NCBI GenBank assembly: GCA_017469545.1
Contig: JAFUGE010000008.1
Location: forward strand, 30,941 to 94,940
From: Clostridia bacterium
Lineage (GTDB): Bacteria; Bacillota; Clostridia; TANB77; UBA1234
Length of the DNA: 64,000 nt
Direction: 5' to 3'
Below are positions 13,123 to 60,436 of this stretch, in pieces. The translations under genes were made by a program, and so were the position numbers. Numbering within the stretch: position 1 is the first letter of the stretch; every line of letters starts with the position of its first letter. The notes under the pieces are model-generated. The model was not told where the DNA came from and made no database searches. It saw nothing but the letters and a program-made list of their open reading frames with translations.

Positions 13123-13158
13123 GTATGGGCAGCGTATTACGCTGCCCGCTTTTTTTAT
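13123..13158 (+). terminator. REP-like hairpin (GTATGGGCAGCGTATTACGCTGCCCG) + T-run as rplL terminator
   Basis: Family hairpin followed by CTTTTTTTAT. Confidence 0.75.
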
Positions 13159-13212
13159 CCGCTTTTTCTTGATTTTGACTATGCGTAATGATAAAATGAA
13201 TAGCGTAAGGAA

Positions 13213-15783
13213 GTGATTTTTGTGGAAGAATTGACGCCTATGATGAAGCAATATATGGAGGTAAAAAATCAATATCAAGATTGTATTTTGATGTATCGTT
13301 TAGGCGATTTTTTTGAGATGTTTTTTGACGATGCGATTACGGCGTCGAGAGAATTGGAATTGACACTTACTGGCAGAGACTGTGGCTTAGCGGAGAGAGC
13401 ACCAATGTGTGGTGTGCCTCACCATGCGATTCAAAGCTATTTGGCGAAGCTTGTGTCCAAGGGATATAAAGTCGCTGTTTGTGAGCAGATGGAAGATCCT
13501 GCGCTTGCAAAGGGCATCGTGAAAAGAGAGGTAATCAGAGTTGTTACGCCTGGCACAGTCATTGAATCGAATATGCTAGACGAGAAGAAAAACAACTATA
13601 TTGCGGCAATTTATAGAATGGGAATATATTATGGGTTGGCCTATTCTGACGTTTCCACGGGCGAGTTTGCTACGACGGAGATTGTAGAGGGTAACAACTA
13701 TAACAAACTTTTAAATGAACTTGCAAGATTTGAACCGGCCGAGATTGTGGTGAACGAAGAACTTTTTGGTGATGCGACAACGATGGAAGAAATCAAAGAA
13801 AGATTTAAAACATATATTACTCCTGCAAGTCCAGAAAACAAAGTAGAGGTAAACGTCGAGCTTCCTAGGGCTATCGAGAAATTGGTATACGCAAAAGAAG
13901 CGACGAATATGCTTCTTTCGTATATCAAAGAAACACAAAAAATTGATATGAAGCATATCAACAATATCGAGATTTATGAGATTAATCAATACATGGTATT
14001 GGATGGGACAGCAAGAAAAAATTTAGAATTAACAGAGACGTTACGTGACAAAAACAAGAGAGGAAGCTTACTTGGTGTGTTAGATAAAACTTCTACCTCT
14101 ATGGGTGGCAGATTGCTTAGAAAGTGGATTGAGAAGCCTTTAATGAATACCCAAGACATCCACCAAAGGCTACTTGGGGTAAAAGAGCTTAAGGATGCCG
14201 TTATGGTAAGAGGCGAAATGCGAGAAGTTTTGAAGAAAGTTTATGATATTGAACGCCTTACTGGTAAAGTGGCTTATGGCACGGTAAATGCTAGAGATTT
14301 AATCGCCCTTAAAAATTCTTTATCACAACTACCAGAGGTAAAGAAGCTAATTGAGGGCTCGAACGCAGAAATACTAACAAGCCTTAATACGCAAATGGAC
14401 CTACTAGAGGACGTTGTACAGCTAATTGACGATGCGATTGTTGAAGACCCACCAGTTTTAATCAAGGAGGGGGGCATCATTAAATCCTCGTACGACGAAA
14501 ATGTAGATAAACTAAGAACTGCCGCTACGGAAGGGAAGAATTGGATTCTTGCATTGGAGGCCAAAGAGAGAGAAGAAACGGGCATTAAAAATTTGAAGGT
14601 TGGATTTAATAAAGTTTTTGGCTATTACATTGAAGTAACAAAGAGCAATATTCCATTCGTACCAGATCGATATATCAGAAAGCAGACACTAACCAATGGC
14701 GAAAGGTATATTACCAACGAGTTAAAAGATATAGAAGATACGATTCTTGGCGCGCAAGAAAAAGTGGTAAATTTGGAGTACGAAATATTTTTAGGTGTTA
14801 GGGATAAAATTGCAGCACAAATCAAGAGATTGCAGCAGACGAGTAATGCTGTTGCTACACTAGATGTGCTTGCGACTTTGGCGGAAGTGGCTGATAAAAA
14901 TGATTATGTGATGCCAGAAGTGGACGAGTCAGAGGAGATTATCATTAAAGATGGCAGACATGCTGTAGTGGAAAGTTTAATTCCAAGTGGTAGTTTTGTA
15001 CCGAATGATACAACACTAAATACAGGCGAAGATAGGGTAAATATCATTACAGGCCCTAATATGGCTGGTAAATCGACGTATATGAGGCAAGTGGCACTGA
15101 TTGTGCTTATGGCACAAATGGGAAGCTTTGTCCCAGCGAGCTTTGCCAAGATTGGAATTGTCGATAGGATTTTTACGAGAATTGGTGCGTCGGACGATTT
15201 ATCGACAGGGCAGTCTACGTTTATGGTTGAAATGAATGAGGTTTCTAACATTTTGATTAATGCGAATAAGAAGAGTTTATTAATTTTGGACGAGATTGGT
15301 AGAGGAACTTCTACATTTGATGGACTTTCTATTGCCTGGTCTGTGATTGAATACATTAGTGAGAAGGTTGCGGCGAGGACCTTGTTTGCAACGCATTATC
15401 ACGAGCTTACAGATTTAGAAGATAAAATGGAAGGAATCAAAAATTATTGTATCGCTGTCAAAGAAAAAGGCGAGGATGTCATTTTCCTTCGTAAAATTAT
15501 TCGTGGTGGGGCAGACGAGAGTTATGGTGTACATGTTGCCAAACTTGCTGGAATACCAAATGCAGTAACCAATAGAGCAAACCAGATTTTAAAGCAGTTA
15601 AAAGAAAGCAATGTGATTAATACCAGCGAGAAGCCTAGTAAGAAAATGAGCAATGTGCAAGAAGTAGATTTATTTAATTATCGATTGGCGGAAATCGCGA
15701 GTGAGCTAGATAAAATTGATGTGAATGCATTGACGCCAATTGAGGCACTAAATACACTGTCAAAATTGAAAATGAAACTGTAG
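13213..15783 (+). CDS. mutS: DNA mismatch repair protein MutS
   Basis: TPMMKQYMEVKNQY N-terminus, Walker A GPNMAGKST, full length 856 aa; start may be GTG 13222 or ATG 13240. Confidence 0.9.
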   Translation: MIFVEELTPMMKQYMEVKNQYQDCILMYRLGDFFEMFFDDAITASRELELTLTGRDCGLAERAPMCGVPHHAIQSYLAKLVSKGYKVAVCEQMEDPALAKGIVKREVIRVVTPGTVIESNMLDEKKNNYIAAIYRMGIYYGLAYSDVSTGEFATTEIVEGNNYNKLLNELARFEPAEIVVNEELFGDATTMEEIKERFKTYITPASPENKVEVNVELPRAIEKLVYAKEATNMLLSYIKETQKIDMKHINNIEIYEINQYMVLDGTARKNLELTETLRDKNKRGSLLGVLDKTSTSMGGRLLRKWIEKPLMNTQDIHQRLLGVKELKDAVMVRGEMREVLKKVYDIERLTGKVAYGTVNARDLIALKNSLSQLPEVKKLIEGSNAEILTSLNTQMDLLEDVVQLIDDAIVEDPPVLIKEGGIIKSSYDENVDKLRTAATEGKNWILALEAKEREETGIKNLKVGFNKVFGYYIEVTKSNIPFVPDRYIRKQTLTNGERYITNELKDIEDTILGAQEKVVNLEYEIFLGVRDKIAAQIKRLQQTSNAVATLDVLATLAEVADKNDYVMPEVDESEEIIIKDGRHAVVESLIPSGSFVPNDTTLNTGEDRVNIITGPNMAGKSTYMRQVALIVLMAQMGSFVPASFAKIGIVDRIFTRIGASDDLSTGQSTFMVEMNEVSNILINANKKSLLILDEIGRGTSTFDGLSIAWSVIEYISEKVAARTLFATHYHELTDLEDKMEGIKNYCIAVKEKGEDVIFLRKIIRGGADESYGVHVAKLAGIPNAVTNRANQILKQLKESNVINTSEKPSKKMSNVQEVDLFNYRLAEIASELDKIDVNALTPIEALNTLSKLKMKL

Positions 15784-15908
15784 GAAACGAATGAAAATCG
15801 GCATCTCGCTGTGTCACTGCGATTGTTTGCGGTGCTCGACGTACCATATGTACGACTCCGCTCCGCACAATCTGGTTCCTTGCGATATACCAATTTTGCT
15901 TCGTTTCT
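15783..15908. repeat. 126-bp intergenic element with GGAAACGAA/TTCGTTTC termini, related to 12551-12677
   Basis: Abuts mutS TAG stop; shares termini, length and a TTCCTTGC motif ~33 nt from the 3' end with the rplJ-rplL element. Confidence 0.4.
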
Positions 15909-15917
15909 GTAAAAAAT

Positions 15918-15969
15918 GTAGGGGCAGCGTATTACGCTGCCCGCTGGCGGCATGCTATGCCGCCCCTAC
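15918..15969. repeat. REP doublet: consensus copy + variant hairpin GGCGGCATGCTATGCCGCC ending CCCCTAC
   Basis: GTAGGGGCAGCGTATTACGCTGCCCG then CTGGCGGCATGCTATGCCGCCCCTAC; second stem entirely different sequence but same architecture. Confidence 0.75.
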
Positions 15970-15991
15970 AAAAGAAAGGAGATAAAACCAA

Positions 15992-17986
15992 ATGGGTTCT
16001 ATTGTGCTTTTGGACGATTTAACGATTAACAAAATAGCGGCTGGTGAAGTAATTGAAAGGCCGGCCAATGTCGTAAAAGAATTAGTGGAGAATTCGATTG
16101 ATGCCGGTGCTACTTCTATTTCGGTGGAGATAGAAAATGGCGGCATTACCTATATTAGAATTACGGACAATGGAAAAGGCATTAGCCCCGACGACGTAGA
16201 AATTGCTTTTGAAAGGCATGCTACTAGCAAGATTAGAAAAGCAGCTGACTTGGTAAAAGTATCTACGATGGGCTTTCGAGGTGAGGCATTGGCAAGTATT
16301 GCCGCCATTGCAAAGGTGGAGCTGATTAGTAGAACGGCCGATAGCGAGCTTGGTACAAGAATTGTAGTAGAAGGCGGCAAAACGATTCTTATAGAAGAAT
16401 GCGGCGCGCCTGTAGGGACGACAATTACAGTCAAAGAATTATTCTTCAATACGCCTGTCCGTTATAAATTCTTAAAAAGAGATTTTACAGAGGGAGGATA
16501 TATTGAAGACGCTGTTTCCAGAATTGCGCTTATTAATCCAAACATCTCTTTTAAAATGACGAACAACAAAAAAGAAATTTTGAGGACGAGTGGAAATGGC
16601 GATATTGCGGCAGTAGTGTATAGCATTTATGGAAAAGACATTGCACAGAATTTGATAGACGTAGAATACGATTATGAGGGAATAAAAATTACTGGTGTCA
16701 CTGGAAAGCCTGAAATTGCCCGCTCTAACAGAGCAAATCAATTATTCTATATCAACGGAAGATATATCAAAGATAAAATTTTATCGGCTGCGGCAGAGGA
16801 AGCATACAGAACTTTGATACCACATGGAAAGTATGGATTTTGTATTTTAAATGTGCAAATGAATCCAGAATTAGTTGACGTGAATGTGCACCCGGCCAAA
16901 TTAGAAGTGCGTTTTTCAGAAGAGGGGAAAGTTTTTAAAGCCGTTAATGGCGCACTAAAAACAGCCTTATTAAAGCAAGATATTACTTCTGAAGCCACTG
17001 TGCCGGGCGGCGAAAGTGAAAAAGAAGAAAAGAAAGAAGAGACATTTACAAAGACAGAACATTCCAAAGGACTATTTGATATTTTTAGACCAAGGCCTGT
17101 TGAAAAGAGAGATAATGTGATTGTAGCAGACTTCGGTAATAGAGTAGAGGAAGAAAAAGAAGCGTATCATGCTGCACCGAAATCGGAAAGCTTAGTCGAT
17201 GAACTATTCACGAATAGTTCGGAGGCTAACTATCAAGATGGTGATAGTTCGGCAGCTAACTATCAAGCGAATGAAAATTCAAAAGAAGGAAATGCTGCTA
17301 CTGAGAGTGCGGAAATGAATCAGACTGTGGAAGAGAAGCCTGTGGAAATGTCGAAAAAATCACAGCAGATGTTTGAAGATATTGCCATAATAGAAGAGAA
17401 AGCAAAAGTACCTGAATACAAAATATTAGGTGTCGCTTTTTTAACATACATCTTTTTGCAACTTGAAAATGATGTCTATATTATTGATCAACACGCGGCA
17501 CATGAAAGAGTATTATTTGAAAAAGTAAAAGAGAACTTTTACAAAAATGGTGGAAAGGAAGCACAAATGCTACTTTTGCCAGATATTATTGAGCTATCAA
17601 AGCACGACATGCGTACTGTAAGGGAGCATATGGATTTATTCCAAAATGCTGGATTTGAGATAGAGGAATTTGGCGACAACACAATCCGAATTACGAGTGT
17701 GCCTTCTATTTGTTTTGAAATGGATACCAGAACTTTGTTTATGGATATTCTAGATGGATTTGATATTACGAATAGAACGACGAAGCAAGAAGTAGAGCAA
17801 AAATTCCTTGCAACTGTAGCTTGCAAAGCGGCCATCAAAGCGGGGATGCATATTGAGGAAAGAGAAATAAGGGGATTATTAGACCAATTATTGGTTTTGG
17901 AAAATCCTTTCACATGTCCACATGGCAGACCAACAGCAATTAGAATTACGAGGGCGGAGATAGAGAAGAAGTTTAAACGAAGATAA
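15992..17986 (+). CDS. mutL: DNA mismatch repair protein MutL
   Basis: N-terminal GHKL ATPase IAAGEVIERPANVVKELVENSIDAG; C-terminal dimerisation domain. Confidence 0.9.
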   Translation: MGSIVLLDDLTINKIAAGEVIERPANVVKELVENSIDAGATSISVEIENGGITYIRITDNGKGISPDDVEIAFERHATSKIRKAADLVKVSTMGFRGEALASIAAIAKVELISRTADSELGTRIVVEGGKTILIEECGAPVGTTITVKELFFNTPVRYKFLKRDFTEGGYIEDAVSRIALINPNISFKMTNNKKEILRTSGNGDIAAVVYSIYGKDIAQNLIDVEYDYEGIKITGVTGKPEIARSNRANQLFYINGRYIKDKILSAAAEEAYRTLIPHGKYGFCILNVQMNPELVDVNVHPAKLEVRFSEEGKVFKAVNGALKTALLKQDITSEATVPGGESEKEEKKEETFTKTEHSKGLFDIFRPRPVEKRDNVIVADFGNRVEEEKEAYHAAPKSESLVDELFTNSSEANYQDGDSSAANYQANENSKEGNAATESAEMNQTVEEKPVEMSKKSQQMFEDIAIIEEKAKVPEYKILGVAFLTYIFLQLENDVYIIDQHAAHERVLFEKVKENFYKNGGKEAQMLLLPDIIELSKHDMRTVREHMDLFQNAGFEIEEFGDNTIRITSVPSICFEMDTRTLFMDILDGFDITNRTTKQEVEQKFLATVACKAAIKAGMHIEEREIRGLLDQLLVLENPFTCPHGRPTAIRITRAEIEKKFKRR

Positions 17987-18017
17987 CTGATTGAAAAATA
18001 AAATGAGATAAAAAAAT

Positions 18018-18043
18018 GTAGGGGCAGCGTAATACGCTGCCCG
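18018..18043. repeat. REP-like element
   Basis: GTAGGGGCAGCGTAATACGCTGCCCG. Confidence 0.8.
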
Positions 18044-18061
18044 CATAAAGGATGGTAAAAA

Positions 18062-18964
18062 ATGAAACCAAAGGTGATTGTGATTGTTGGGCCGACGGCG
18101 TCAGGAAAGTCTGGCGTGGCCATCGAGCTTGCCAAGAAAATCAATGGAGAAATTGTATCGGCAGATTCTATGCAGGTATACAGAGAAATGAATATTGGCA
18201 CAGCAAAGGTTACGGAGGAGGAAGCGGCAGGCATCAAGCATTATTTAATAGATGTCGCAAGTCCTGCCGAAACCTTTAATGTAGCGATGTATAAAAGCAT
18301 GGCAGAAGAAGCTATCCGAGAAATTATTGCCAAAGGAAAAACGCCTATTGTTGTTGGAGGGACGGGGCTATATGTGAGTACGCTTGTCAATGGTATAGAA
18401 CTTTCAGAAGTAAAAAATGACGATAGGATTCGAAAAAAACTAGAAGAAAGGCTTACGAATGAGGGAATTGATGTGGTGTTCCAGGAACTGCAAAAAGTAG
18501 ACCCAGAAGCGGCACAAGTCATTGATAAGAATAATACAAGAAGAGTCATAAGAGCGCTAGAAATTTATGAAGCGACTGGAAAGACGAAAACGCAGCTTGA
18601 TAGAGAGTCTATCAAGGAAGTAGCATTTGATTATCAAATTTTTGGAATCTTGACGGACAGAGAAGAACTATATGATAGAATTAACAAAAGAGTAGATTGC
18701 ATGATAGAGCAGGGACTTATTGAAGAAGTGAAGAGTTTGCGAGAAAAGTATACTTTTTCGCAAACGGCACTACAAGGCCTTGGCTATAAAGAGGTCATAG
18801 AATTTTTGGATGGAACGATAACAAAAGAAGAAATGATTGAAAAGCTAAAAATGGAAACGCGAAGATACGCCAAAAGACAAATGACATGGTTTAGAAGAGA
18901 CGACAGAATCCATTGGGCTACACGAGAAAATATTCTTGCAGATATTATGTCTATGACATTGTAA
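18062..18964 (+). CDS. miaA: tRNA dimethylallyltransferase
   Basis: P-loop VIVGPTASGKS, DSMQVYREMNIGTAK. Confidence 0.9.
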   Translation: MKPKVIVIVGPTASGKSGVAIELAKKINGEIVSADSMQVYREMNIGTAKVTEEEAAGIKHYLIDVASPAETFNVAMYKSMAEEAIREIIAKGKTPIVVGGTGLYVSTLVNGIELSEVKNDDRIRKKLEERLTNEGIDVVFQELQKVDPEAAQVIDKNNTRRVIRALEIYEATGKTKTQLDRESIKEVAFDYQIFGILTDREELYDRINKRVDCMIEQGLIEEVKSLREKYTFSQTALQGLGYKEVIEFLDGTITKEEMIEKLKMETRRYAKRQMTWFRRDDRIHWATRENILADIMSMTL

Positions 18965-19017
18965 TATTTTTTGTTTTTGTATATAATGATTGTAATTGAG
19001 TTACAAAGGAGTAAAAA

Positions 19018-20283
19018 ATGGCGAATAAAAAAAATCAGTATCAGCAAAATATTGCTTTAGTTGTTTTGTCGATTATCATTATTTTAGTTGTTCTTTTTGT
19101 GATTAAAACAATTAGCTTGCTTAGAAAGCCGACTTTAACGACCATTGTAAAAAATGGTGAATTGATTAAGTATGAAGAAGTGACGGGCTATGTGATTCGA
19201 AAAGAAGAAGTAGTGGATACGAGTACATATAGCGGCATTATCAACACTGCCATTTCTGATGGTTATCGCGTGGCGAAGAACGGAACTATTTCTGCCTATG
19301 TTTCTAATACGGAAAAAAATTTGGTGAAAAAGATTTCAGAGTTAGACGATAAAATTCAGGAAGTCATGAACAGTCAGCAAACGACGCTCCCGAATGATGT
19401 TAAAGTGCTAGATACAAGTATTAAAGCCAACTTATACAATGCCGTTAAGAATAAAGAAGATGTTTACATGGTTTCGGAGTATAAGTCTGCGATTAACCAG
19501 AGCATACAAAAGAAAGCAAAGATTGTGGGAGAGCTTAGTCCGAGCGGTTCGAAATTAAAAGAATTGATCGACGAGCGATTAAAATATGAGGCAGAATTAA
19601 ATAATTCGAAGCAAGTTTTAAAGGCGCCAGTAGCAGGACTTGTGTCATACCGAGTAGATGGCTATGAAAATATATTGACGCCAAATAGTTTGTCGAGTAT
19701 TTCTATTAAAGAATTGGAAAAGATAAAAATCAATGTGGGGCAGATTATTCCGATTGATACGTCGAAAGTGAAAATCATTGATAATTTTTCCTGCTTTATC
19801 GCGATTCCAATGAGTTCTGAGGAAAGCAAAGATACAAAACTAAATGATAAAATAAAGCTAAGATTTGATAATACCGGAGACGAGCTAATTCAAGGAACAG
19901 TGGAATACATATCGGAGGAAGATTCACAAAGACTAATCGTGGTAGAGATTACTTCTAATATTGAGGAGTTATCAAAGTATAGGAAGATTAATTTGGACGT
20001 AGTTTGGTGGAGAGATGCAGGACTGAAAGTTCCAGATAATGCGATAAAATTTACTTCTGTGACCAATAGCGAAACTGGCATGGTAATCGAAAATATTCCA
20101 ACCGTGACCATACAAAAATCGTCTTACACCGAGACAGCTTGGGTCAAAATCATTAGACAGGCCAACGATTTTTCTATTATTGAGAACTATACCGACGACG
20201 AATTATTGGAGATGGGCTTAAGTGAAGAACAAGTATCTAATAGGCAAACCATCAAATTGTATAGTGACGTTGTACTGGAATAA
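19018..20283 (+). CDS. HlyD-family membrane-fusion/periplasmic-adaptor-like protein
   Basis: N-terminal TM anchor, long coiled-coil region, C-terminal beta domain; no partner transporter adjacent; hfq absent downstream of miaA. Confidence 0.35.
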   Translation: MANKKNQYQQNIALVVLSIIIILVVLFVIKTISLLRKPTLTTIVKNGELIKYEEVTGYVIRKEEVVDTSTYSGIINTAISDGYRVAKNGTISAYVSNTEKNLVKKISELDDKIQEVMNSQQTTLPNDVKVLDTSIKANLYNAVKNKEDVYMVSEYKSAINQSIQKKAKIVGELSPSGSKLKELIDERLKYEAELNNSKQVLKAPVAGLVSYRVDGYENILTPNSLSSISIKELEKIKINVGQIIPIDTSKVKIIDNFSCFIAIPMSSEESKDTKLNDKIKLRFDNTGDELIQGTVEYISEEDSQRLIVVEITSNIEELSKYRKINLDVVWWRDAGLKVPDNAIKFTSVTNSETGMVIENIPTVTIQKSSYTETAWVKIIRQANDFSIIENYTDDELLEMGLSEEQVSNRQTIKLYSDVVLE

Positions 20284-20409
20284 TATTACAATAATGTTAC
20301 AAGAAAATTAAAAAAATATTACAGTGTCAGAATAGATTGACTTTAATCGAAAAAAATATAAAATATAGATATACAGATGACGAAAAAGGTATATAGGGGG
20401 TTTATATTA

Positions 20410-20862: not shown

Positions 20863-20881
20863 AAATTAGGTGGTTAGTAGT

Positions 20882-21337: not shown

Positions 21338-21409
21338 ATGTAGTTAATGGGTCGATAATTTATTGGCCCATTTTTCTAGATATAAAAATATCTTATTTCG
21401 GAGGTTAAA

Positions 21410-22165: not shown

Positions 22166-22184
22166 AATGATTTTGCAAAATTTT

Positions 22185-22239: not shown

Positions 22240-22265
22240 GTAGGGGCAGCGTACTACGCTGCCCG
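22240..22265. repeat. REP-like element
   Basis: GTAGGGGCAGCGTACTACGCTGCCCG. Confidence 0.8.
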
Positions 22266-22295
22266 CAAAACAAATTATATATTAGGAGTGAGAAA

Positions 22296-24258: not shown

Positions 24259-24597
24259 ATGGTTTATGTGATTGGACTTGCCGGAGGAATTGTTGGAGGC
24301 CTTTTTGGAGCAGGAAGCGGTATGATTATTTTACCAGCGATGGTAACTTTGTTAAAAGAAGACGAATACAAGGCAAGAGGTACGACTTTATTGATTGTGC
24401 TTGTCATTACTTTAACGAGCGCCTTCTTTTATTATAAAAATGATTTTTTTGATTTTGGTTCCGCCATTCAAACTGCAATTGGTGGCACAATCGGAGGTTT
24501 TTTAGGAGCGAAATTTATGAAAAAAATTCCTAAATTTTGGCTATCAATTATCTTTTATGCGTTTATGATTTTGGTGGCAATTAGAATGCTCTTGTAG
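24259..24597 (+). CDS. TSUP (TauE/SafE, DUF81) family transporter, 4-TM half-size protein
   Basis: GLAGGIVGGLFGAGSGMIILPAM motif; 112 aa. Confidence 0.55.
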   Translation: MVYVIGLAGGIVGGLFGAGSGMIILPAMVTLLKEDEYKARGTTLLIVLVITLTSAFFYYKNDFFDFGSAIQTAIGGTIGGFLGAKFMKKIPKFWLSIIFYAFMILVAIRMLL

Positions 24598-24627
24598 AAA
24601 TTTTACTTTCTAGAATTAGGAGGAAGT

Positions 24628-24987
24628 ATGCTAATCTTAACAGGAATGGTATCTGGAATCATTTCGGGCATGGGAATGGGTGGAGGAACGATTTTAATCA
24701 TTATCTTAACGAATATTTTTAAAGTGGAACAGCATATCGCACAGGCAAACAATTTAATATTCTTTATTCCAACTTCCATTGCAGCAATCTATGTTCATTC
24801 GAAAAATAAAAATATGGATAAAAAAATAGTAATGAAAATGCTTCCAACGGGGATTATAGGAGCTATGATTGGCGCTTCAATTTCGGCTAAGATGGAGGGA
24901 GAAAATTTAAAAAAATTTTTTGGAATATTTTTGCTGTGTATTGGTGTGTATGAAATCGTCATAACAGTAAAGAATAAGAAAAGATAA
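24628..24987 (+). CDS. TSUP family transporter, second 4-TM half-size protein
   Basis: GMVSGIISGMGMGGGTILIIIL motif; own RBS AGGAGG; 119 aa. Confidence 0.55.
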   Translation: MLILTGMVSGIISGMGMGGGTILIIILTNIFKVEQHIAQANNLIFFIPTSIAAIYVHSKNKNMDKKIVMKMLPTGIIGAMIGASISAKMEGENLKKFFGIFLLCIGVYEIVITVKNKKR

Positions 24988-25203: not shown

Positions 25204-25231
25204 TTGCATTTTTCTGAAAATGTGTTATAAT
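25204..25231 (+). promoter_or_regulatory. candidate promoter for the large ncRNA
   Basis: TTGCAT, 16-bp spacer, TGT-TATAAT extended -10. Confidence 0.4.
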
Positions 25232-25237
25232 AACAAG

Positions 25238-25810
25238 TAGTGGTGTGCTATTCTAGTGATTGCTATGGATTGCGAGGACGGGCCTAAAAATCCGTTGAAA
25301 GGGCATATCGATGAAGTTCTTTAGTTTGGCTCGCGACGCCCAGTCGAGGGTCTCTCTAGGGAGTAAGGTTTAAGGGCGATCTGCAATGGCATGTAGGCGT
25401 TGACCCTTCTACCGTGGAGACACTTCAGTGCGAGCAAAATTTCGCCTGAAGTGATAAACCTGCAAGGCTAATATATTTTGCAAAAAATATTCGTTAGTAC
25501 ACAGTGTAGCTTTCCTTGAGTGAGAATGGCGAATTGCAAATGAAACCATTGTTGCAAAAGAGGATAAACAATCATTTTAGCGATACCGAGGAAATCTCCT
25601 AGAGCATTCTATTAAGAGATGCATTGAGGATTGAAGTGTGGACTAAGTGGTAATCTAGGCTCTTTACCGGCGACGTAAAGATGCTGCCTTTAAAGGGAAA
25701 CCGCTAAGATGGCGATATCTTAGGAGGCAGTAGGGAAATCCTTCTAGACCTAAGCCGCAAAATTTACTTGATGCATTGCCACTACTATTTTTTTAAAATA
25801 ATTGATGGAG
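25238..25810 (+). ncRNA. ole: candidate OLE (ornate large extremophilic) RNA
   Basis: ~575-nt non-coding, stop-rich, GC-enriched structured region immediately upstream of a small 4-TM protein gene, near spoIIIA; assignment by context and size only. Confidence 0.4.
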
Positions 25811-25814
25811 ATTG

Positions 25815-25840
25815 CGGGCAGCGTGGTACGCTGCCCCTAC
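25815..25840. repeat. REP-like element, reverse orientation
   Basis: CGGGCAGCGTGGTACGCTGCCCCTAC. Confidence 0.8.
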
Positions 25841-25875: not shown

Positions 25876-26415
25876 ATGTCAAATAAAACGGAGCAAAATG
25901 TACATAACCATTGGCTAGTAAAAGTGTTTTTTATTACTTTTATTTTGTCATTGATATTTAATTATTTGTCCACGGAAGTGGTGGAGAGTGTTAGTATCGT
26001 TACGTCCATCATTATATTAATTGTTGTAATTTTGATAGGAATTCTATTTGATTTGGTGGCGACTGCCGTTACGGCGGCAGACGAAGCGCCGTTTCATGCA
26101 AAAGCTTCTGATAAAAAGAAAGGGGCAAAGCAATCGGTTAAATTAGTGAAGAATGCAGATAAAGTTTCTAATTTTTGTGCAGACGTTGTCGGAGATATTT
26201 GTGGAATATTAAGTGGAGCGACAAGTGCACTTGTATCAGTAAATTTAAGTAATGCGTTGGGACTTAGTAATATCACGATTGTGACAATGTTAGTGACAGC
26301 AACAGTGACGGCACTAACGGTTTTAGGAAAGGCCTTAGCAAAACACATTGCGATTGATAAGGCAGAAGAAATTATTACGACGCTTGGAAAAGTAATGGCT
26401 GTATTTTCTAAATAA
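25876..26415 (+). CDS. small 4-TM membrane protein, candidate OLE-associated protein OapA
   Basis: 180 aa, predicted 4 TM helices, immediately downstream of the candidate OLE RNA. Confidence 0.4.
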   Translation: MSNKTEQNVHNHWLVKVFFITFILSLIFNYLSTEVVESVSIVTSIIILIVVILIGILFDLVATAVTAADEAPFHAKASDKKKGAKQSVKLVKNADKVSNFCADVVGDICGILSGATSALVSVNLSNALGLSNITIVTMLVTATVTALTVLGKALAKHIAIDKAEEIITTLGKVMAVFSK

Positions 26416-39857: not shown

Positions 39858-39883
39858 GTAGGGGCAGCGTATCACGCTGCCCG
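39858..39883. repeat. REP-like element (exact consensus)
   Basis: GTAGGGGCAGCGTATCACGCTGCCCG. Confidence 0.8.
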
Positions 39884-39918
39884 AAAAATATTGCCAATTG
39901 AATAAAGGAGAATATCAT

Positions 39919-45671: not shown

Positions 45672-45700
45672 GTAGGGGCAGCGTAATACGCTGCCCTTTT
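45672..45700 (+). terminator. REP-like hairpin + TTTT
   Basis: GTAGGGGCAGCGTAATACGCTGCCC followed by TTTT. Confidence 0.7.
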
Positions 45701-45821
45701 GGCATGCAAATCACCCATTGTTTTATGCCCATCCTGCCTCACTGGTCAGTTTGGTTGAAACTGTTTGATTTTTGTGATATGATTACCAAATAGGGAAAAA
45801 AGCGAGTAATGGGGTGAAGTA

Positions 45822-47526: not shown

Positions 47527-47559
47527 TTTAGGGTCAGCGTGATACGCTGACCCTAAAAT
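47527..47559. repeat. REP-like variant, fully symmetric (TTTTAGGGTCAGCGTGATACGCTGACCCTAAAA)
   Basis: Compensatory GGGTCAGCGT/ACGCTGACCC stem; sits between convergent genes. Confidence 0.7.
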
Positions 47560-47560
47560 G

Positions 47561-51490: not shown

Positions 51491-51509
51491 ACTAAAAAGA
51501 TGTGACTAA

Positions 51510-52412: not shown

Positions 52413-52556
52413 GAATTTCATCCTTTCACATGTAGAGTATATATTAATTTGTATCAACTTTAGGTTAATGCTATTATAACTAATTTGATATTCCAAAGTC
52501 AAGTATTTTTAGATATACTTCAAGTAGATAAAAATATTTATGGAGGGATAAAGATA

Positions 52557-52976: not shown

Positions 52977-52997
52977 AAACATGAAAGAGGGATTATT

Positions 52998-53483: not shown

Positions 53484-53520
53484 AACTGGCTGTGTAAATT
53501 AATCTGTGAAAAAATATTTG

Positions 53521-53546
53521 TAGGGGTCGGCCTCTGGACGACCCGA
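53521..53546. repeat. REP-like variant GTAGGGGTCGGCCTCTGGACGACCCG
   Basis: Same GTAGG...CCCG frame with different compensatory stem GGGTCG/CGACCC. Confidence 0.65.
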
Positions 53547-53562
53547 AATAGGGGGTTATAAT

Positions 53563-54210
53563 ATGAAAAGAAATATTTTAGTTTTAGGAATTTTAATGAT
53601 TGTAATGATTTTAGGATTATGTGCATGTGGGGAACAACCAATAGATAATAATGAAAATAATGTTGAAAATAATAATTCAAATGAAGTTCAAATAGGTAAT
53701 AATAATGAAACGGAGGAAAATGCAGTGACTACAAATAGTGAAGGAAATGCTTTAGTAGTATATTTTTCTTGGGCAAATCATACGGAAAAAATGGCGAGCG
53801 TAATCGCCGCTGAAACAGGAGCAGATGTTGCAGTGATTGAACCTGTTAATGCTTATCCAACAGACTATAATGAATGTACGGAAGTAGCTTTGGAAGAACA
53901 AAGAAGAGGAGAAAAACCAGCGATTAAAGATTTAGGACTTGATTTAGAGGACTATGATGTAATATACTTAGGTTATCCAATTTGGTGGATGGATATGCCA
54001 CAAGTATTATATACTTTCTTAGAAAACAATGATTTCTCTGGCAAAACAATTTATCCTTTTACAACAAGTTATAGCTCAGGTATTATTGGCACGTTTGATA
54101 AAATTAAAAATATTGCAACAGGTGCTGATGTGGAAGAAGGACTTCATATTTTCCAAAGAGAAATTGATAGAGACAACTACGAAGAAACAATTAAAGATTG
54201 GCTTAAATAA
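53563..54210 (+). CDS. flavodoxin-like lipoprotein (extracytoplasmic)
   Basis: Lipobox GLCAC; LVVYFSWANHTEKMA and GYPIWWMDMP flavodoxin-like motifs. Confidence 0.65.
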   Translation: MKRNILVLGILMIVMILGLCACGEQPIDNNENNVENNNSNEVQIGNNNETEENAVTTNSEGNALVVYFSWANHTEKMASVIAAETGADVAVIEPVNAYPTDYNECTEVALEEQRRGEKPAIKDLGLDLEDYDVIYLGYPIWWMDMPQVLYTFLENNDFSGKTIYPFTTSYSSGIIGTFDKIKNIATGADVEEGLHIFQREIDRDNYEETIKDWLK

Positions 54211-54226
54211 TGAGGTATGATACTAA

Positions 54227-54251
54227 GGGTCGCATATTATGCGACCCCTAC
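54227..54251. repeat. REP-like variant, reverse orientation (GGGTCGCATATTATGCGACCCCTAC)
   Basis: Compensatory stem GGGTCGCAT/ATGCGACCC with CCTAC flank. Confidence 0.65.
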
Positions 54252-54313
54252 GATGTTATAGCGGCAATGTGACTAATACGATGTTATAGAAGAAATGAAA
54301 AGGAGCTAGTAAG

Positions 54314-55653: not shown

Positions 55654-55729
55654 TTTGTGGAGGAGAGTATGCATTACATTGAGGCGAAATCATTGCTGAC
55701 AAGGTGGAATGGTATGGATGTAGAGCGGA

Positions 55730-55759
55730 TTGACAAAAGTGGCCTTTTGGAGGTATAAT
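55730..55759 (+). promoter_or_regulatory. sigma-A promoter for tcdA copy 1
   Basis: TTGACA, 18 bp, TATAAT. Confidence 0.45.
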
Positions 55760-55771
55760 GGCGAATATGCA

Positions 55772-55795
55772 GGGCAGCTTTGTTTGGCTGCCCGC
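55772..55795. repeat. degenerate REP-like hairpin
   Basis: GGGCAGC TTTGTTT GGCTGCCCG lacking GTAG flank. Confidence 0.4.
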
Positions 55796-55823
55796 AAATG
55801 ATGTACATAAAAGAGGGGACGAA

Positions 55824-56576
55824 ATGTTAAATCAATTTTCAAGAACAGAATTGTTGATAGGTAAAGAGGCATTAGAGAAACTAAGTAATGCAAAGGTTGC
55901 CGTTGTTGGAATCGGAGGAGTTGGCTCTTATGTAGTGGAGGGCTTGGTCCGCGCTGGAGTAGGAAATTTTGTGTTAGTGGACGACGATAAGGTTTGCCTT
56001 ACGAATTTAAATAGACAGCTAATTGCTACGAGGAAGACGGTTGGAAAGTATAAAGTGGAAATGGCAAAGGAAAGAATTTTAGAGATAAATCCAAAGGCGA
56101 ATGTGGAAACTTTTCAGGAATTTTTCTTGCCGGAGACCGAAGGAATTATTGACGAGAGTGTGGATTACATTGTGGATGCGGTGGATACCGTTACGGCAAA
56201 AATCGAACTTGTGATGAGAGCGAATAAGCTTCATATTCCGATTATTTCTTGTATGGGTACGGGCAACAAATTAGACCCTACCAGATTTGAGGTAACAGAT
56301 ATTTTTAAAACAAGTGTATGTCCACTTGCTAAAGTAATGCGAAAGGAATTAAGGACGAGAGGAATCAAGCATTTAAAAGTGTTGTATTCCAAAGAGGAAC
56401 CGATAAAACCTGACGAGACTTTGGAATGCAGCTGTAAGACGGGCTGTATCTGCCCTCCTGGAACGGTCAGAAAATGTACGCAGAGAAACCAAGTGCCGGG
56501 AAGTATTTCTTTTGTGCCATCCGTTGCCGGATTAATCATTAGTGGCGAAGTAATTAAAGATATTATCAATCTGTAG
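55824..56576 (+). CDS. tcdA: tRNA threonylcarbamoyladenosine dehydratase (TcdA/CsdL, ThiF/MoeB family), copy 1
   Basis: Rossmann VAVVGIGGVGSYVVEGLVRAGVGNFVLVDDDKVCLTNLNRQ; stop codon TAG lies inside GTAG of the following REP. Confidence 0.75.
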   Translation: MLNQFSRTELLIGKEALEKLSNAKVAVVGIGGVGSYVVEGLVRAGVGNFVLVDDDKVCLTNLNRQLIATRKTVGKYKVEMAKERILEINPKANVETFQEFFLPETEGIIDESVDYIVDAVDTVTAKIELVMRANKLHIPIISCMGTGNKLDPTRFEVTDIFKTSVCPLAKVMRKELRTRGIKHLKVLYSKEEPIKPDETLECSCKTGCICPPGTVRKCTQRNQVPGSISFVPSVAGLIISGEVIKDIINL

Positions 56577-56598
56577 GGTCAGCGTAGCACGCTGACCG
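56573..56598. repeat. REP-like variant GTAGGGTCAGCGTAGCACGCTGACCG
   Basis: Compensatory GGGTCAGCGT/ACGCTGACC stem; overlaps tcdA-1 stop. Confidence 0.75.
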
Positions 56599-56620
56599 CT
56601 ATGAAAAAGGAGAATAGAGT

Positions 56621-57379
56621 ATGAATAAAAAATTGATTTTTGGTTTAATTTTATGTATTTTGACAATTGGGTTAGTTGCTTGCACGGAGCAAAATGAAGT
56701 GATTGATAATCAAGATAACCCAGTCGAAGAACAAGTGCAAGAAAATGTAGAAGTAGTGGATAATGGCGAAGAACAAGCAGTGGAAAATAATGAGAATGAA
56801 GCTGAAGTAGTGGAGAAAAACAATAATGAAGAAATAAATGTTGAAAATAGTGAGAAGAAAATTTTAATTGCTTTTTTCTCAAGAGCTGATGAAAATTATT
56901 CAGTAGGAACAGTAGATGTTGGAAATACAGAAATCATGGCAGGATTTATCAAAGATTATTTAGGCGATAAGGCTGATACATTTAAAATAGATCCTGTTGT
57001 TGCATACCCAAAAGATTATAAAGAGTGTACAGAATATGCAACAAAAGAATTAAATGAAAATGCAAGACCAGAATATAAAAATGCAGATAGTTTAGATATG
57101 TCAAAGTATGATACAGTTATATTAGGCTACCCAATTTGGTGGGGTGATGTTCCAATGATTATTAATACATTTTTAGAGAAATACGATTTTTCTGGCAAGA
57201 CAATTTACTTGTTTAATACACACGAAGGAAGCGGAAATAGTGGAACATACACATCAATTAAAAATAAAATGACATCAGCAAATGTAGATACTAATGGCTT
57301 AGCAATTAGGGGTGCTGAAGCAAGAAAAGAGTCTTCAAGAAACACAGTAGAAAACTGGCTAAAAGGATTAGGTTTATAA
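56621..57379 (+). CDS. flavodoxin-like lipoprotein, paralog of 53563-54210
   Basis: Lipobox LVAC; ILIAFFSRADENYS, GYPIWWGDVP, DFSGKTIYLFNT shared with the other lipoprotein flavodoxin. Confidence 0.65.
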   Translation: MNKKLIFGLILCILTIGLVACTEQNEVIDNQDNPVEEQVQENVEVVDNGEEQAVENNENEAEVVEKNNNEEINVENSEKKILIAFFSRADENYSVGTVDVGNTEIMAGFIKDYLGDKADTFKIDPVVAYPKDYKECTEYATKELNENARPEYKNADSLDMSKYDTVILGYPIWWGDVPMIINTFLEKYDFSGKTIYLFNTHEGSGNSGTYTSIKNKMTSANVDTNGLAIRGAEARKESSRNTVENWLKGLGL

Positions 57380-57507
57380 AGGGAAATAGCTGAATTACTA
57401 TTTGTATGACACTATTAAAAGCTATGGACTAAGCAAAGAAAAAATGAAAAATTGTAGAATTAAAAGTTGCATTTTAATTTTTAATTTGCTAGAATTAAAT
57501 CGTAAAT

Positions 57508-57533
57508 TGTAGGGGCAGCGTATCACGCTGCCC
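57508..57533. repeat. REP-like element (exact consensus)
   Basis: GTAGGGGCAGCGTATCACGCTGCCCG. Confidence 0.8.
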
Positions 57534-57556
57534 GTGAAGAAAGGAGGAAAACACAC

Positions 57557-57619
57557 ATGACAAACCTTGTAACCGTTGGGGCTGTACACACACACACACA
57601 CACACAAGTAATTCGTTAA
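57557..57619 (+). CDS. candidate 20-aa small ORF MTNLVTVGAVHTHTHTQVIR containing the (CA)10 tract
   Basis: AAGGAGG RBS 57541-57547, ATG 57557, stop TAA 57617; could be fortuitous. Confidence 0.2.
   Translation: MTNLVTVGAVHTHTHTQVIR
57588..57607. repeat. (CA)10 dinucleotide microsatellite
   Basis: cacacacacacacacacaca read directly; only SSR of this kind in the window. Confidence 0.9.
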
Positions 57620-57656
57620 ATATAGAATTTTATAATAAAATACGCGATGGATAAAG

Positions 57657-57767
57657 TTTCCTAAAAGGGCGCGTACAGACGGGAGTAAAATGTGCACGAA
57701 AACAATTTGCAGAGACAAATTGAAATGCACATTTTAGTCCTGTGTGTACATGTCCCTTTTAGGAAAC
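57657..57767 (+). promoter_or_regulatory. long imperfect inverted repeat (42-nt arms, 27-nt loop) followed by T-run upstream of pilin-like gene
   Basis: GTTTCCTAAAAGGGCGCGTACAGACGGGAGTAAAATGTGCAC vs TGCACATTTTAGTCCTGTGTGTACATGTCCCTTTTAGGAAAC then CTTTTTGTTTC. Confidence 0.45.
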
Positions 57768-57805
57768 TTTTTGTTTCAATAAAAAATAATGGGAGGTAAC
57801 AATTT

Positions 57806-59452
57806 ATGAACAAAAGATCAAACAAAGGCATATCTTTAATTGCCTTAATCATAACAATAATCGTAATAATAATTTTAGCAGCAATTGTTATTGGTGGAGT
57901 GTTCAACACACCTAATGACGCAAAATTCGCAAACTTCTGCCAAGAGTATGACAGAGTGCAAACAGCAATTCAATTAAAGTACTATGAATTATATCAAAAA
58001 TATGCAATATCAGTTTCAACAGAAGTGCCAACACATTATGAAATGTATAATGAAGTAGCAACAGGCACAAAGGCAGACACGCTAACAGGAGCAAATAATA
58101 TAGACTCAGATAAATGGGTAACAATATCAGAAAGTCAGTGGGGAATAGGCAGTAACAAGATATGTGCAAAGCCATCATTTGCTGGTAATTGGTATGTAAG
58201 ATTAAATGATGGAAAACTAGCCTATGCAGGATTTGAAAAAGGCGAGCAAGATATGTATTATACACCTACAGCACATACAACAGGAAATAGGACTGCACAA
58301 GCGGTGGATTATTTTAATGGATTAACTTTAGGGACTGCCGCAGATAGTGAAACGCAAAGTGGACTTTTGGCACTAGTGCTAGGCGAAGGTGGAGGAAGTA
58401 GCAATGGAAGTGGAGACGGTGGTGCAGAAACATTACCAGAGCTAGAAGAAGGCGAAGCATATCTAGCACAAGTAGCCAAAGTAGGAGACTATGTAAAATA
58501 TGTAGCAGATAGTGGCACATGGACACCAGACCCAACTAAAACAGGAAACAGTAATGCAACACCACTAAGAACAGATACAAGTACTGCTTGGAGAGTATGG
58601 GAAAACAATGGAACAACAGTAACACTAATACCAACAAGCCCAGTAAACACATTATATTTAGGAACTAGGGCAAGTACAAGTAACACAAGTTCTCCAGCGC
58701 CAACAGATGATACAGGTGCAACATATGGAGTAGCAGGATATGTGAATGGACCAAGCCTAATGAATGAAATAGCAAGAACATTATATAGTAAGAGTGGATA
58801 CACTAGCAGCGTAAGACATATGACATATGAAGATATACAAGCAAAATTAAAAACACCATTTACACCGACAGCAAATAAATATGCGTATTTTAAAAGTGGA
58901 GATAGCTCGACGTTATCTGCAGGTTCAGCCTATATGAAGAGGACACACACGACAAGTTTATATAATGGAATCACAGAGCCAAGATTTTATACCTGGGACA
59001 CAGATGGAGTAACATATGATACAGACCCAACTTCAGAAACATATCAAGTAAGGACAGATAGTAATGGAAGGACATATATGACACCAACAACAGGACACCC
59101 AGTATATGTGACATATACATATATCAAATCTTCGATAGCAGCAGATAATTGGGCAGATGTAACAGATACACATGCAACAGGCACAACAACTTATGGAAAT
59201 ATTTTGGGAGGTTCGTATAGTTGGCTGGCCTCGCCGTGCGTGTATTTGAGCACTGGCGGTGCGCACTTCTACATGCGCATTGTTGCTTCGGATTACTTGA
59301 ACGGCAATTCCTTGGCTGGCTCGCATGGCGAATCGGCCTCTCGCAGCAATAGTCTTCGCCCCCTAGTAACGCTTAGCTCTTCGGTCAGAGTAAATACAAC
59401 GGATAGTGCCAAAAACGGCTCTACAACAGCAAATGCATGGATAATCAAATAA
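57806..59452 (+). CDS. large N-terminally anchored pilin-like surface protein (prepilin-like leader lacking Glu5), Thr/Gly/Ser-rich
   Basis: MNKRSNKGISLIALIITIIVIIILAAIV resembles class III signal peptide/KG-cleavage site; codon usage (ACA/GCA/GGA-rich) and a GC-rich C-terminal segment 59210-59400 differ from neighbours. Confidence 0.45.
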   Translation: MNKRSNKGISLIALIITIIVIIILAAIVIGGVFNTPNDAKFANFCQEYDRVQTAIQLKYYELYQKYAISVSTEVPTHYEMYNEVATGTKADTLTGANNIDSDKWVTISESQWGIGSNKICAKPSFAGNWYVRLNDGKLAYAGFEKGEQDMYYTPTAHTTGNRTAQAVDYFNGLTLGTAADSETQSGLLALVLGEGGGSSNGSGDGGAETLPELEEGEAYLAQVAKVGDYVKYVADSGTWTPDPTKTGNSNATPLRTDTSTAWRVWENNGTTVTLIPTSPVNTLYLGTRASTSNTSSPAPTDDTGATYGVAGYVNGPSLMNEIARTLYSKSGYTSSVRHMTYEDIQAKLKTPFTPTANKYAYFKSGDSSTLSAGSAYMKRTHTTSLYNGITEPRFYTWDTDGVTYDTDPTSETYQVRTDSNGRTYMTPTTGHPVYVTYTYIKSSIAADNWADVTDTHATGTTTYGNILGGSYSWLASPCVYLSTGGAHFYMRIVASDYLNGNSLAGSHGESASRSNSLRPLVTLSSSVRVNTTDSAKNGSTTANAWIIK

Positions 59453-59460
59453 ATCATAGG

Positions 59461-59484
59461 TGGCGCTCGATTGGGCGCCATTTT
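59461..59484 (+). terminator. rho-independent terminator
   Basis: TGGCGC/GCGCCA stem + TTTT. Confidence 0.5.
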
Positions 59485-59661
59485 AAATTTTGGGGGACGG
59501 AGGAAAAATTTAAAAAATAATATAATCGTAAAGTTGTCATTATAAAGGACTAAGCAAGTAGTTGTTGAAAACTGCTTGCTTTTGTGTTATTATTTAGTCA
59601 AATAAATGTGATTTTAATGAAGTTTGTAGTAATTATAAAAATCACGAAGGAGTAAGTAATA

Positions 59662-60414
59662 ATGTTAAATCAGTTTTCAAGAACAGAATTATTAATAGGC
59701 AAAGAAGCCTTAGATAAATTAAGTAATGCAAAAGTAGCTGTTATAGGAATTGGAGGAGTCGGCTCTTATGTGGTTGAAGGGTTGGTAAGAGCGGGAGTTG
59801 GCAATTTCGTTTTAGTTGATGATGATAAAGTTTGTTTGACTAATTTAAATAGACAGCTTATTGCTACAAGAAAAACAGTTGGAAAATATAAAGTTGAAAT
59901 AGCGAAGGAAAGAATTTTAGAAATCAATCCAAAAGCTAATGTAGAAATTTATCAAGAGTTTTTCTTGCCAGAGACACAAGGCATCATTGATGAAAGTGTT
60001 GATTACATAGTGGACTGTGTTGATACAGTTACTGCAAAAATTGATCTTGTGATGAGAGCAGATAAGCTAAACATACCAATTATTTCTTGCATGGGAACAG
60101 GCAATAAACTAGACCCAACAAGATTTGAAGTTACTGATGTTTTTAAGACTAGTGTTTGCCCGCTTGCTAAAGTGATGCGAAAAGAATTAAGAGCAAGAGG
60201 TATCAAACATTTAAAAGTGCTATATTCAAAAGAGGAGCCAATAAAGCCAGATGAAACACTGGAATGTAGTTGCAAAACAGGCTGTATATGCCCACCAGGT
60301 ACGGTAAGAAAATGTACACAGAGAAATCAAGTGCCAGGAAGTATTTCGTTCGTACCTTCTGTTGCTGGATTAATTATTGCTGGCGAAGTTATAAAAGATA
60401 TCATAAAAATGTAG
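59662..60414 (+). CDS. tcdA: tRNA threonylcarbamoyladenosine dehydratase (TcdA/CsdL), copy 2
   Basis: ~95% aa identical to copy 1 but many synonymous nucleotide differences; stop TAG inside following REP. Confidence 0.75.
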   Translation: MLNQFSRTELLIGKEALDKLSNAKVAVIGIGGVGSYVVEGLVRAGVGNFVLVDDDKVCLTNLNRQLIATRKTVGKYKVEIAKERILEINPKANVEIYQEFFLPETQGIIDESVDYIVDCVDTVTAKIDLVMRADKLNIPIISCMGTGNKLDPTRFEVTDVFKTSVCPLAKVMRKELRARGIKHLKVLYSKEEPIKPDETLECSCKTGCICPPGTVRKCTQRNQVPGSISFVPSVAGLIIAGEVIKDIIKM

Positions 60415-60436
60415 GGGCAGCGTATCACGCTGCCCG
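60411..60436. repeat. REP-like element (exact consensus) overlapping tcdA-2 stop
   Basis: GTAGGGGCAGCGTATCACGCTGCCCG. Confidence 0.8.

Follow-up and report, generated by a model that had tools for sequence, protein, structure and literature searches.

Does a short hairpin repeat that recurs between the genes of an uncultured gut bacterium simply occupy its spacers, or does it also end transcripts and proteins there? We addressed this question in a 64,000-nt stretch (hereafter the window) of Clostridia bacterium contig JAFUGE010000008.1, positions 30,941 to 94,940 of the forward strand. An initial annotation of this DNA had described repetitive extragenic palindromic (REP) hairpins that form intrinsic terminators after rplL and after a second gene, provide the TAG stop codons of both copies of tcdA, so that the TcdA proteins would end at the insertion point, and give rise to artefactual open reading frame (ORF) starts. 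The rplL terminator (as very probable), the TAG inside GTAG and the ORF artefacts were upheld by our analysis, and the second terminator (45676) and the changed TcdA C-terminus were not. We consider it probable that the repeats are lineage-specific insertions of a GTAG-tagged REP family, which provide a terminator stem where a T-run stands at the end of a transcription unit and otherwise form read-through hairpins, with the tcdA stop codons kept at their ancestral position.

The window has a G+C content of 35.9% and a GC skew of +0.20 to +0.26 throughout, and nearly all of its genes are encoded on the + strand. Its gene content is ordinary housekeeping (pth, an RNase E/G family gene, rplU, rpmA, obg, nusG-rplKAJL, mutS, mutL, miaA, sepF, divIVA, ruvA and others). 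We identified the source scaffold as scaffold_47 (265 kb; 99.9-100% identical to the window) of ENA ERZ28654170, a metagenome-assembled genome (MAG) of an uncultured gut Clostridia, and included its ±10 kb flanks, giving ~80 kb of inspected genome sequence. For comparison, we used 80 loci (~750 kb) sampled from related GTDB species and a syntenic relative (L102-L105, ~20 kb; RplL 95% identical; 31% G+C), together with the strains recovered from the same species (L081-L085, L091-L092 and L095-L100; 96.7-100% identical to the window).

A GTAG-Tagged Repeat Family

Once oriented and aligned, the copies define a repeat unit of 27 nt that reads (T)GTAG-GGGCAGCGT-NNN-ACGCTGCCC-G(C/T). Searching with GGGCAGCGTNNNACGCTGCCC and allowing up to 3 mismatches gave 18 matches in the window and 0 in 100 shuffles; two further degenerate copies (8296 and 15945) bring the total to 20, and one extra copy lies in the adjacent 16 kb. 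The hairpin itself is 21 nt long, consisting of a 9-bp G+C-rich stem and a freely varying 3-nt loop, with a folding energy of -17.8 kcal/mol. Stem cells are paired in 99.5% of cases, compensatory double changes occur at 4 of the 9 pairs, and T·G, on the strand that bears GTAG, is the sole non-Watson-Crick pairing in the stem. The GTAG tag, usually preceded by T, is present in 18 of the 20 copies, the exceptions being GTAT at 13123 and TTAG at 47528. All 20 copies are intergenic and outside real coding sequences, and single arms (GGGCAGCGT or ACGCTGCCC) do not occur in the window, where they are seen only as paired hairpin arms. GTAG lies on the + strand in 14 copies and on the - strand in 6, the orientation is sense/leading-strand in 12 of 14 singletons, and three inverted doublets (8292-8366, 11918-11969, 15918-15969) each have GTAG outermost. 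The copies at 56573 (tcdA1) and 47528-47554 carry a sub-variant stem, GGTCAGCG...CGCTGACC. Because the repeat shows the defining features of GTAG-tagged REPs (PMC3733652; PMC2817692), we assign it to this class, and the 20 intergenic hairpin copies, the GTAG tag and the doublets agree with the REP-type elements of the initial annotation.

Pairs of DUS-like uptake sequences of the Neisseria type were considered as well and ruled out, as the arms are never single and never inside genes. A second GTAG variant (GTAG-GGGTCG...CGACCC) is present in the window as two inverted hairpins (53520-53545 and 54227-54251) around a flavodoxin gene (53563-54210), an arrangement that resembles the usual flanking of rayt genes; the enclosed gene is not a transposase.

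Insertion into Short Spacers

The family was absent from the 80 related-species loci as well as from the syntenic ~20 kb of the relative, in which the gene order from the GT4 gene to ruvA is the same as in the window except for an extra MbnB-like gene. The mutL-miaA spacer measures 21 nt in the relative versus 75 nt in the window, and the spacer from mutS to the next gene 22 versus 208 nt, the latter comparison involving different neighbours, namely the MbnB-like gene (absent from the window) in the relative and mutL in the window. Since the equivalent spacers of the relative are 21-22 nt long without a REP, we take the copies to be insertions into spacers of extreme shortness. Scanning the JGI metagenomes for the exact pattern gave only two short contigs, from another organism, and so carries no information on the distribution of the family or of RAYT.

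Within the species, the sole REP polymorphism seen was a change of GACC to GACA in one strain (L084 1266-1292), which breaks the stem of its tcdA1 REP. Public contigs of the same species stop in or at REP copies (L082 and L083 at window position 60434, L099 at window position 8291), which indicates that the repeat fragments short-read assemblies.

Stop Codons and C-Termini of the tcdA Paralogs

The two tcdA genes overlap the repeat exactly as had been proposed. The TAG stop of tcdA1 (56574-56576) is the TAG of the GTAG at 56573, that of tcdA2 (60412-60414) is the TAG of the GTAG at 60411, and in both cases the hairpin begins with the next base. The further idea, that the insertions set the ends of the proteins and that the native C-terminus was longer, did not survive an alignment of orthologs. 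The 120 closest TcdA homologs are mostly 249-252 aa long and end in ...GEV(I/V)KDI(I)K plus 0-3 residues. A REP at the tcdA gene end is absent in 79 of the 80 genome loci, the exception (L004) having a different GTAG REP family there. The ortholog in L086 reads ...DIIKM-TAA without a REP, with the same last residues as tcdA2, and that in L003 reads ...ININL-TAA, close to the ...IINL of tcdA1. About 200 REP-free orthologs end at the same position, the outcome that the initial annotation had itself listed as a refutation; the TcdA C-termini are therefore native, and the proteins were not cut short by the REP. Minus the 27 nt of the element, the gap from the stop codon of the tcdA genes to the next start is ~17 nt long and consists mostly of the ribosome-binding site (RBS); for this reason a REP fits only by abutting or overlapping the stop. 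So short a spacer leaves essentially one tolerated position, which would explain why both tcdA REPs lie at the same nucleotide.

The four ORF starts suspected of being read-through artefacts all proved to be so. The GTG start at 8349 lies inside the REP at 8342 and the real start is the ATG at 8439, which has an RBS; the start at 60270 gives an ORF that runs across the REP at 60415, and the ATG at 60459 is the real one. The start at 55758 coincides in part with the -10 box of a 12/12 promoter, and its frame runs on across the hairpin at 55769-55795, with the real start at the ATG at 55824, whose product begins MLNQF... as in all homologs. Finally, the ORF that begins at 15791 has 64 codons and includes the REP doublet at 15918-15969 in its translation. 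In the annotation of gut Clostridia MAGs, such hairpins yield false starts and spurious small ORFs, and a stop codon inside a repeat should not be taken as a truncation. Directly 5' of tcdA1 we noted a perfect sigma-70 consensus promoter (TTGACA-18-TATAAT; 55730-55795 region), and a degenerate REP-like hairpin stands at the 5' end of the predicted tcdA1 transcript.

The Probable Terminator after rplL

The REP copy that follows rplL (13123-13158) reads GTAT-GGGCAGCGTATTACGCTGCCC-GC-TTTTTTT and begins 18 nt after the rplL stop. If an intrinsic terminator is called wherever a U-rich tract (at least 5 U in 8) begins 0-2 nt behind a G+C-rich stem, the sequence predicts one at 13126-13156 (U7) and marginally at 6332, and none at 45676 (UUUU) or at the other 17 copies. 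The 13123-13156 site, with a hairpin of -17.8 kcal/mol, was also the top terminator-like match within positions 1-20000. In the REP-free relative (L103), a conventional 13-bp stem with U7 (-21.8 kcal/mol) is located 18 nt after the rplL stop, so the terminator stem of the relative and the REP with T7 of the window stand at equal distance from the gene. A promoter-like site (13169-13197) lies between the rplL REP and mutS, and no second hairpin was found between the rplL stop and this site. Because the REP-free relative has a terminator in the same slot and no other hairpin precedes mutS, the REP copy very probably serves as the intrinsic terminator stem of rplJL, as the initial annotation had it. 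The T-run is part of the flank and not of the REP element. Changes to GTAG block TnpA-REP in E. coli, any such change abolishing its binding and cleavage (PMC8266576), and this copy, with its GTAT tag, may hence no longer be mobilisable.

Co-option as a terminator is convincing for the rplL copy only, and the cases for the copies after rpmA and after the 45210-45656 gene are weaker. The copy at 45676, for which a canonical terminator (45672-45700) had been claimed, is followed by TTTT and then GG, is absent from the terminator scan, and, in the predicted fold, loses part of its U-run to pairing with the GUAG flank upstream. Promoter-like sites, which are consensus matches only, also follow 6332 and 45676 (45755-45783 after the latter). 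A homolog of the 45210-45656 gene in a relative was rejected as a comparison since its context is not syntenic, an SprT-like gene overlapping it. The window also has many ordinary terminators that are not REPs.

In the window (13109-13240), rplL is followed by mutS-mutL rather than rpoB-rpoC. The rplL-mutS order is common to the window and the relative (L103), and rpoB lies ~8 kb past the right window end (L095 19198). The source scaffold has an N-gap between rplJ and rplL (L098 19410-19509).

Proposed Mechanism and Alternative Explanations

On the reading that we prefer, a RAYT/TnpA-REP-type HUH enzyme would act on the hairpin of the GTAG-bearing single strand, and copies would survive only where 27 extra bases are tolerated, that is, in the very short spacers of co-directional genes. 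The REPs would then be transcribed within mRNAs, where a hairpin before a T-run that closes a transcription unit would work as an intrinsic terminator stem and those elsewhere would be read-through intercistronic hairpins. At tcdA, the TAG of GTAG would now be the stop codon at the ancestral position, with the proteins unchanged. We had also considered GTAG as an insertion target, with the gene's own TAG as attractor; this was dropped, as GTAG is the guide recognised by TnpA-REP and cleavage takes place at CT/CA (PMC8266576).

Several observations weigh against this reading. No RAYT or Y1_Tnp gene was found in the ~80 kb (Pfam scan of 40 window ORFs and Pfam tables for the ±10 kb), so that the mobilising enzyme is a putative one; no empty-site alleles were found within the species, the same copies being present in all recovered strains; and insertion, as opposed to replacement of an old terminator stem, is judged from a relative with only 95% RplL identity. 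Moreover, T-runs are not enriched behind the repeats, with at least 5 T in the 8 nt after the hairpin in 3 of 20 copies versus 13.6% in the intergenic background (binomial p = 0.52; for TTTT within 0-2 nt of the hairpin, 3 of 20 versus 4.3%, p = 0.05), which confines terminator use to 1-3 of the 20 copies. The T-run count and the location of most copies inside operons, just 5' of an RBS, would suit the view that nothing was co-opted at all, that the rplL REP landed beside a pre-existing T-run with Rho, or read-through to a later site, taking care of the transcript, and that the copies with T-runs are chance neighbours. We regard this as quite unlikely, given that no alternative hairpin lies between the rplL stop and the mutS promoter-like site, that the canonical terminator of the relative occupies exactly the position of the rplL REP, and that the 9-10-bp stem with 7 GC and U7 within 2 nt has all the sequence properties of an intrinsic terminator. 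Truncation of TcdA by new stops within the repeat, with longer native C-termini, is hardly credible. Both paralogs do have their TAG within GTAG, and in a few homologs (P0029, P0085, P0109, P0111) the C-terminus runs on for 5-12 residues more. Most of the 120 closest homologs, however, have their stop at the same position or no more than 3 residues away, 79 of the 80 genome loci have no REP at the stop, and the genes of L086 (without a REP) and L003 close with TAA after residues that match those of tcdA2 and come close to those of tcdA1, respectively. The C-terminal extension of P0029 was also considered as REP read-through, which was rejected because the sequence is not REP-derived.

The hairpins could instead be selected RNA elements, with the stop-abutting tcdA copies throttling TcdA translation by stalling terminating ribosomes. 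The REP starts at most 15 nt past a stop in 7 of 20 copies (0, 0, 6, 7, 11, 11 and 13 nt), the orientation is biased to the sense strand, the wobbles suit solely the GTAG (mRNA-sense) strand, the tcdA stop of L004 is directly followed by GTAG REPs of another family, and PMC12306157 cites (as its reference 17) a report that E. coli REPs fewer than 16 nt away from the stop reduce translation. Orientation and wobbles fit single-strand DNA recognition on the lagging-strand template equally well, however, and the stop proximity is forced by the very short spacers of the genome; we therefore think such selection unlikely. The shared position of the two tcdA copies, with the hairpin at +1 after TAG and 23 nt to the next start, could also reflect descent from a single insertion that preceded the tcdA duplication and was kept in both genes by selection on the hairpin. 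All that differs between the two REPs is a single stem pair, with a compensatory change, and a single base of the loop, which is what a conserved structure would lead one to expect. Across the 50 nt at the starts of the downstream genes, identity is 58%, which ranks 6 of 1653 gene pairs; unrelated pairs match as well. Against this, the paralogs, although 94% identical as proteins, are saturated at synonymous sites (pS 0.73) and differ in third-position G+C (GC3, 0.39 versus 0.23), a distance over which an unconstrained 27-mer would not survive. The two REPs are no more similar than unrelated family copies, tcdA1 having the sub-variant GGTCAGCG in common with 47532 and not with tcdA2, the family is absent from all sampled sister species, and in an ancestral spacer of ~17 nt independent insertions would coincide too. 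A single insertion is possible, though we doubt it, and we lean towards two independent ones on these sequence comparisons. Independent REPs at the same tcdA nucleotide, taken with the other family at the L004 stop, might in turn point to targeting of ...NTG/CTN-stop gene ends, or to hairpins next to the stop having been positively selected as a means of tuning TcdA (t6A to ct6A) output in Gram-positives. We judge this improbable; if it were true, then, with the strand bias, no functional GTAG REP system with strand specificity would have been described in Clostridia before this one.

History of the tcdA Paralogs

In MAG RGIG4468 (L004 5751-5865), the tcdA TGA is followed at once by another GTAG REP family, GTAGCGGCGAAC-AGC-GTTCGCC, in three tandem units of 38 nt, and REPs at the tcdA gene end are thus recurrent; a unit resembling these adjoins a window-type REP in L094. 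The tcdA duplication recurs in the clade as well, since RGIG8531 (L002/L003) has a separate, recent duplication of its own (dS 0.14). The GC3 difference between the window paralogs suggests different histories, possibly horizontal acquisition, and low GC3 values (~0.2) prevail from 48 to 64 kb as a whole.

The tcdA1 copy is bracketed CT/GTAG...CCGCT/, and removal of the 28-nt unit leaves AAT CTA TGA, i.e., INL-stop. The same excision on the tcdA2 copy restored no ancestral stop. Speculatively, the tcdA1 unit fits an IS608-like CT-targeted insertion by the mechanism described in PMC8266576, and the predicted empty-site allele of tcdA1 would read ...ATCAATCTATGAAAAAGGAG...

Other Features of the Window

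The coordinates of the repeats and of the two tcdA genes are listed in Table 1.

Table 1. Repeat copies, related hairpins and tcdA genes of the window
Feature	Position	Strand	Remarks
REP copy	596-622	-	GTAG on minus strand; between convergent genes
REP copy	3852-3878	+	pth / RNase E/G gene spacer; hairpin 7 nt past stop, 20 nt before next start
REP copy	6328-6365	+	After rpmA (L27), then ATTTTGCATTTTTG; moderate terminator-like site before obg
REP copy	7730-7756	+	After obg
REP doublet, GTAG outside	8292-8366	.	Degenerate forward copy 8292-8318 and reverse copy 8340-8366; gives false GTG start 8349
REP doublet	11918-11969	.	Forward and reverse copies 2 nt apart; between L10-leader terminator-like stem/T-run and rplJ
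REP copy, GTAT tag, GC and T7	13123-13156	+	After rplL; probable rplJL terminator
REP doublet	15918-15969	.	Between mutS and mutL; translated by spurious ORF from 15791
REP copy	18018-18044	+	mutL/miaA spacer; hairpin 19 nt before start codon
REP copy	22240-22266	+	3' of conventional terminator, 5' of ruvA RBS
REP copy	25814-25840	-	GTAG on minus strand; 18 nt past OLE RNA 3' end
REP copy	39858-39884	+	Between FtsX-type permease and response-regulator genes
REP copy without 3' GC, then TTTT	45672-45700	+	After 45210-45656 gene; at best weak terminator
REP sub-variant TTAG-GGTCAGCG...CGCTGACC-CTAA	47528-47554	+	After AMP-binding enzyme gene; between convergent genes
Degenerate REP-like hairpin GCAG-GGCAGC-loop-GCTGCC-CGC	55769-55795	+	tcdA1 5' UTR
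tcdA1, true coding sequence (ThiF-family tRNA t6A dehydratase)	55824-56576	+	GC3 0.39
REP sub-variant GGTCAGCG...CGCTGACC	56573-56599	+	GTAG holds tcdA1 TAG stop; hairpin at +1; 23 nt to next start
REP copy	57509-57535	+	Just 5' of 19-codon ORF with (AC)n tract
tcdA2	59662-60414	+	GC3 0.23; 94% aa identity to tcdA1, pS 0.73
REP copy	60411-60437	+	GTAG holds tcdA2 TAG stop; hairpin at +1; 23 nt to next start

Rfam matched two RNAs in the window, one OLE RNA and one L10 leader. The OLE RNA is full-length (RF01071, 414 bits; 25224-25840 region), the reverse REP lies 18 nt on, and the gene that follows (25876-26415) has a CNNM-domain match below threshold. The L10 leader (RF00557; 11791-12047) ends in an 18-bp stem with T7, and between its end and the rplJ RBS are the REP doublet, which has compensatory stem changes in both arms, and ~55 nt of extra G+C-rich sequence. 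The leader of the relative (L103 9244-9378) is 107 nt shorter and has neither the doublet nor the extra G+C-rich sequence.

Right after the REP at 57509-57535, a 19-codon ORF (MTNLVTVGAVHTHTHTHTHK, then stop; 57558-57777 region) contains an (AC)n tract (57586-57606) that varies between strains, being 12 nt longer in L095/L081 and 14 nt longer in L084/L085. On the 3' side of this ORF stands an almost perfect hairpin of ~125 nt (z = -8.3) that ends in a T-run and is followed by a 548-aa gene without a Pfam domain (57806-59452). The ORF and hairpin at 57558-57777 could be a leader/attenuator or a phase-variable switch. A TauE/SafE exporter at 24259-24987 is split into two adjacent ORFs in swapped order, the first corresponding to profile positions 130-237 and the second to 1-109.

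Comparison with Known Systems

The closest counterpart of the window family is the GTAG super-family (PMC3733652), which includes the REP/BIME elements of E. coli, the REP/REPIN elements of Pseudomonas and the SMAG elements of Stenotrophomonas. Like these, it has an unpaired 5' GTAG adjoining a G+C-rich stem (6-13 bp) with a loop of 2-3 nt, is high-copy and extragenic, lies mostly between co-directional or convergent genes near the 3' end of the upstream ORF, and occurs as singletons and as inverted dimers with GTAG outermost, in sub-families with complementary stem changes. The use of the TAG of GTAG as a stop codon and the spurious N-terminal extensions are shared too, GTAG REPs having been described as elements that "often provide the stop codon (TAG)" and cause false N-terminal ORF extensions (Di Nocera 2013, PMC3733652). 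This placement is by architecture. The window family differs in its host, an uncultured low-GC Clostridia (Bacillota), in the predominance of singletons and in its strong sense/leading-strand bias. The REP surveys of 2010 and 2013 (PMC2817692, PMC3733652) make no mention of Firmicutes or Clostridia, and our literature search on RAYT in Firmicutes returned only unrelated papers, on the microbiome and other subjects.

With regard to the RAYT/TnpA-REP REPtrons (Nunvar 2010, PMC2817692; Corneloup 2021, PMC8266576), the GTAG guide and perfect palindrome resemble the group 3 REPs of S. maltophilia and Marinomonas, and CT stands directly 5' of GTAG in 5 of 20 copies; unlike in REPtrons, no rayt gene flanked by inverted REPs was found in the 80 kb inspected. 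REPs have been linked to transcription termination (PMC2817692 and references therein), termination/attenuation and mRNA stability (PMC2817692, PMC3733652), and REP/BIME-associated attenuation in E. coli is cited in PMC3733652 (Espeli 2001). As in such repeat-palindrome terminators, a family hairpin with a U-tract stands at the probable end of a transcription unit at 13123-13156, but here the canonical U-tract is found in 1 of 20 copies and is weak in 2, and the T-run comes from the flank. Rickettsia palindromic elements and intragenic REPs, too, are palindromic repeats that extend into coding sequence and leave the protein in working order; the window family differs from them in that only the stop codon is shared and no residues of real proteins are REP-encoded, the apparent ones being ORF-calling artefacts. 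As with the stop-proximal REPs of E. coli, the hairpin lies 0-13 nt past the stop in 7 copies, both tcdA copies included; an effect has been shown only in E. coli. We know of no test of such a translational effect in Bacillota.

Since stop-codon supply, false extensions, termination and stop-proximal effects have all been described before, the behaviour of the window REPs is an instance of known REP behaviour and leaves the current understanding of REPs unchanged. The host lineage is modestly new and the strong strand bias is unusual. A RAYT of this lineage, once found, would inform on how REPs spread. Compared with the systems above, the window extends GTAG-type REPs to an uncultured low-GC Bacillota lineage, and its rplL case offers a clean example of a mobile palindrome in the slot of a conventional terminator stem.

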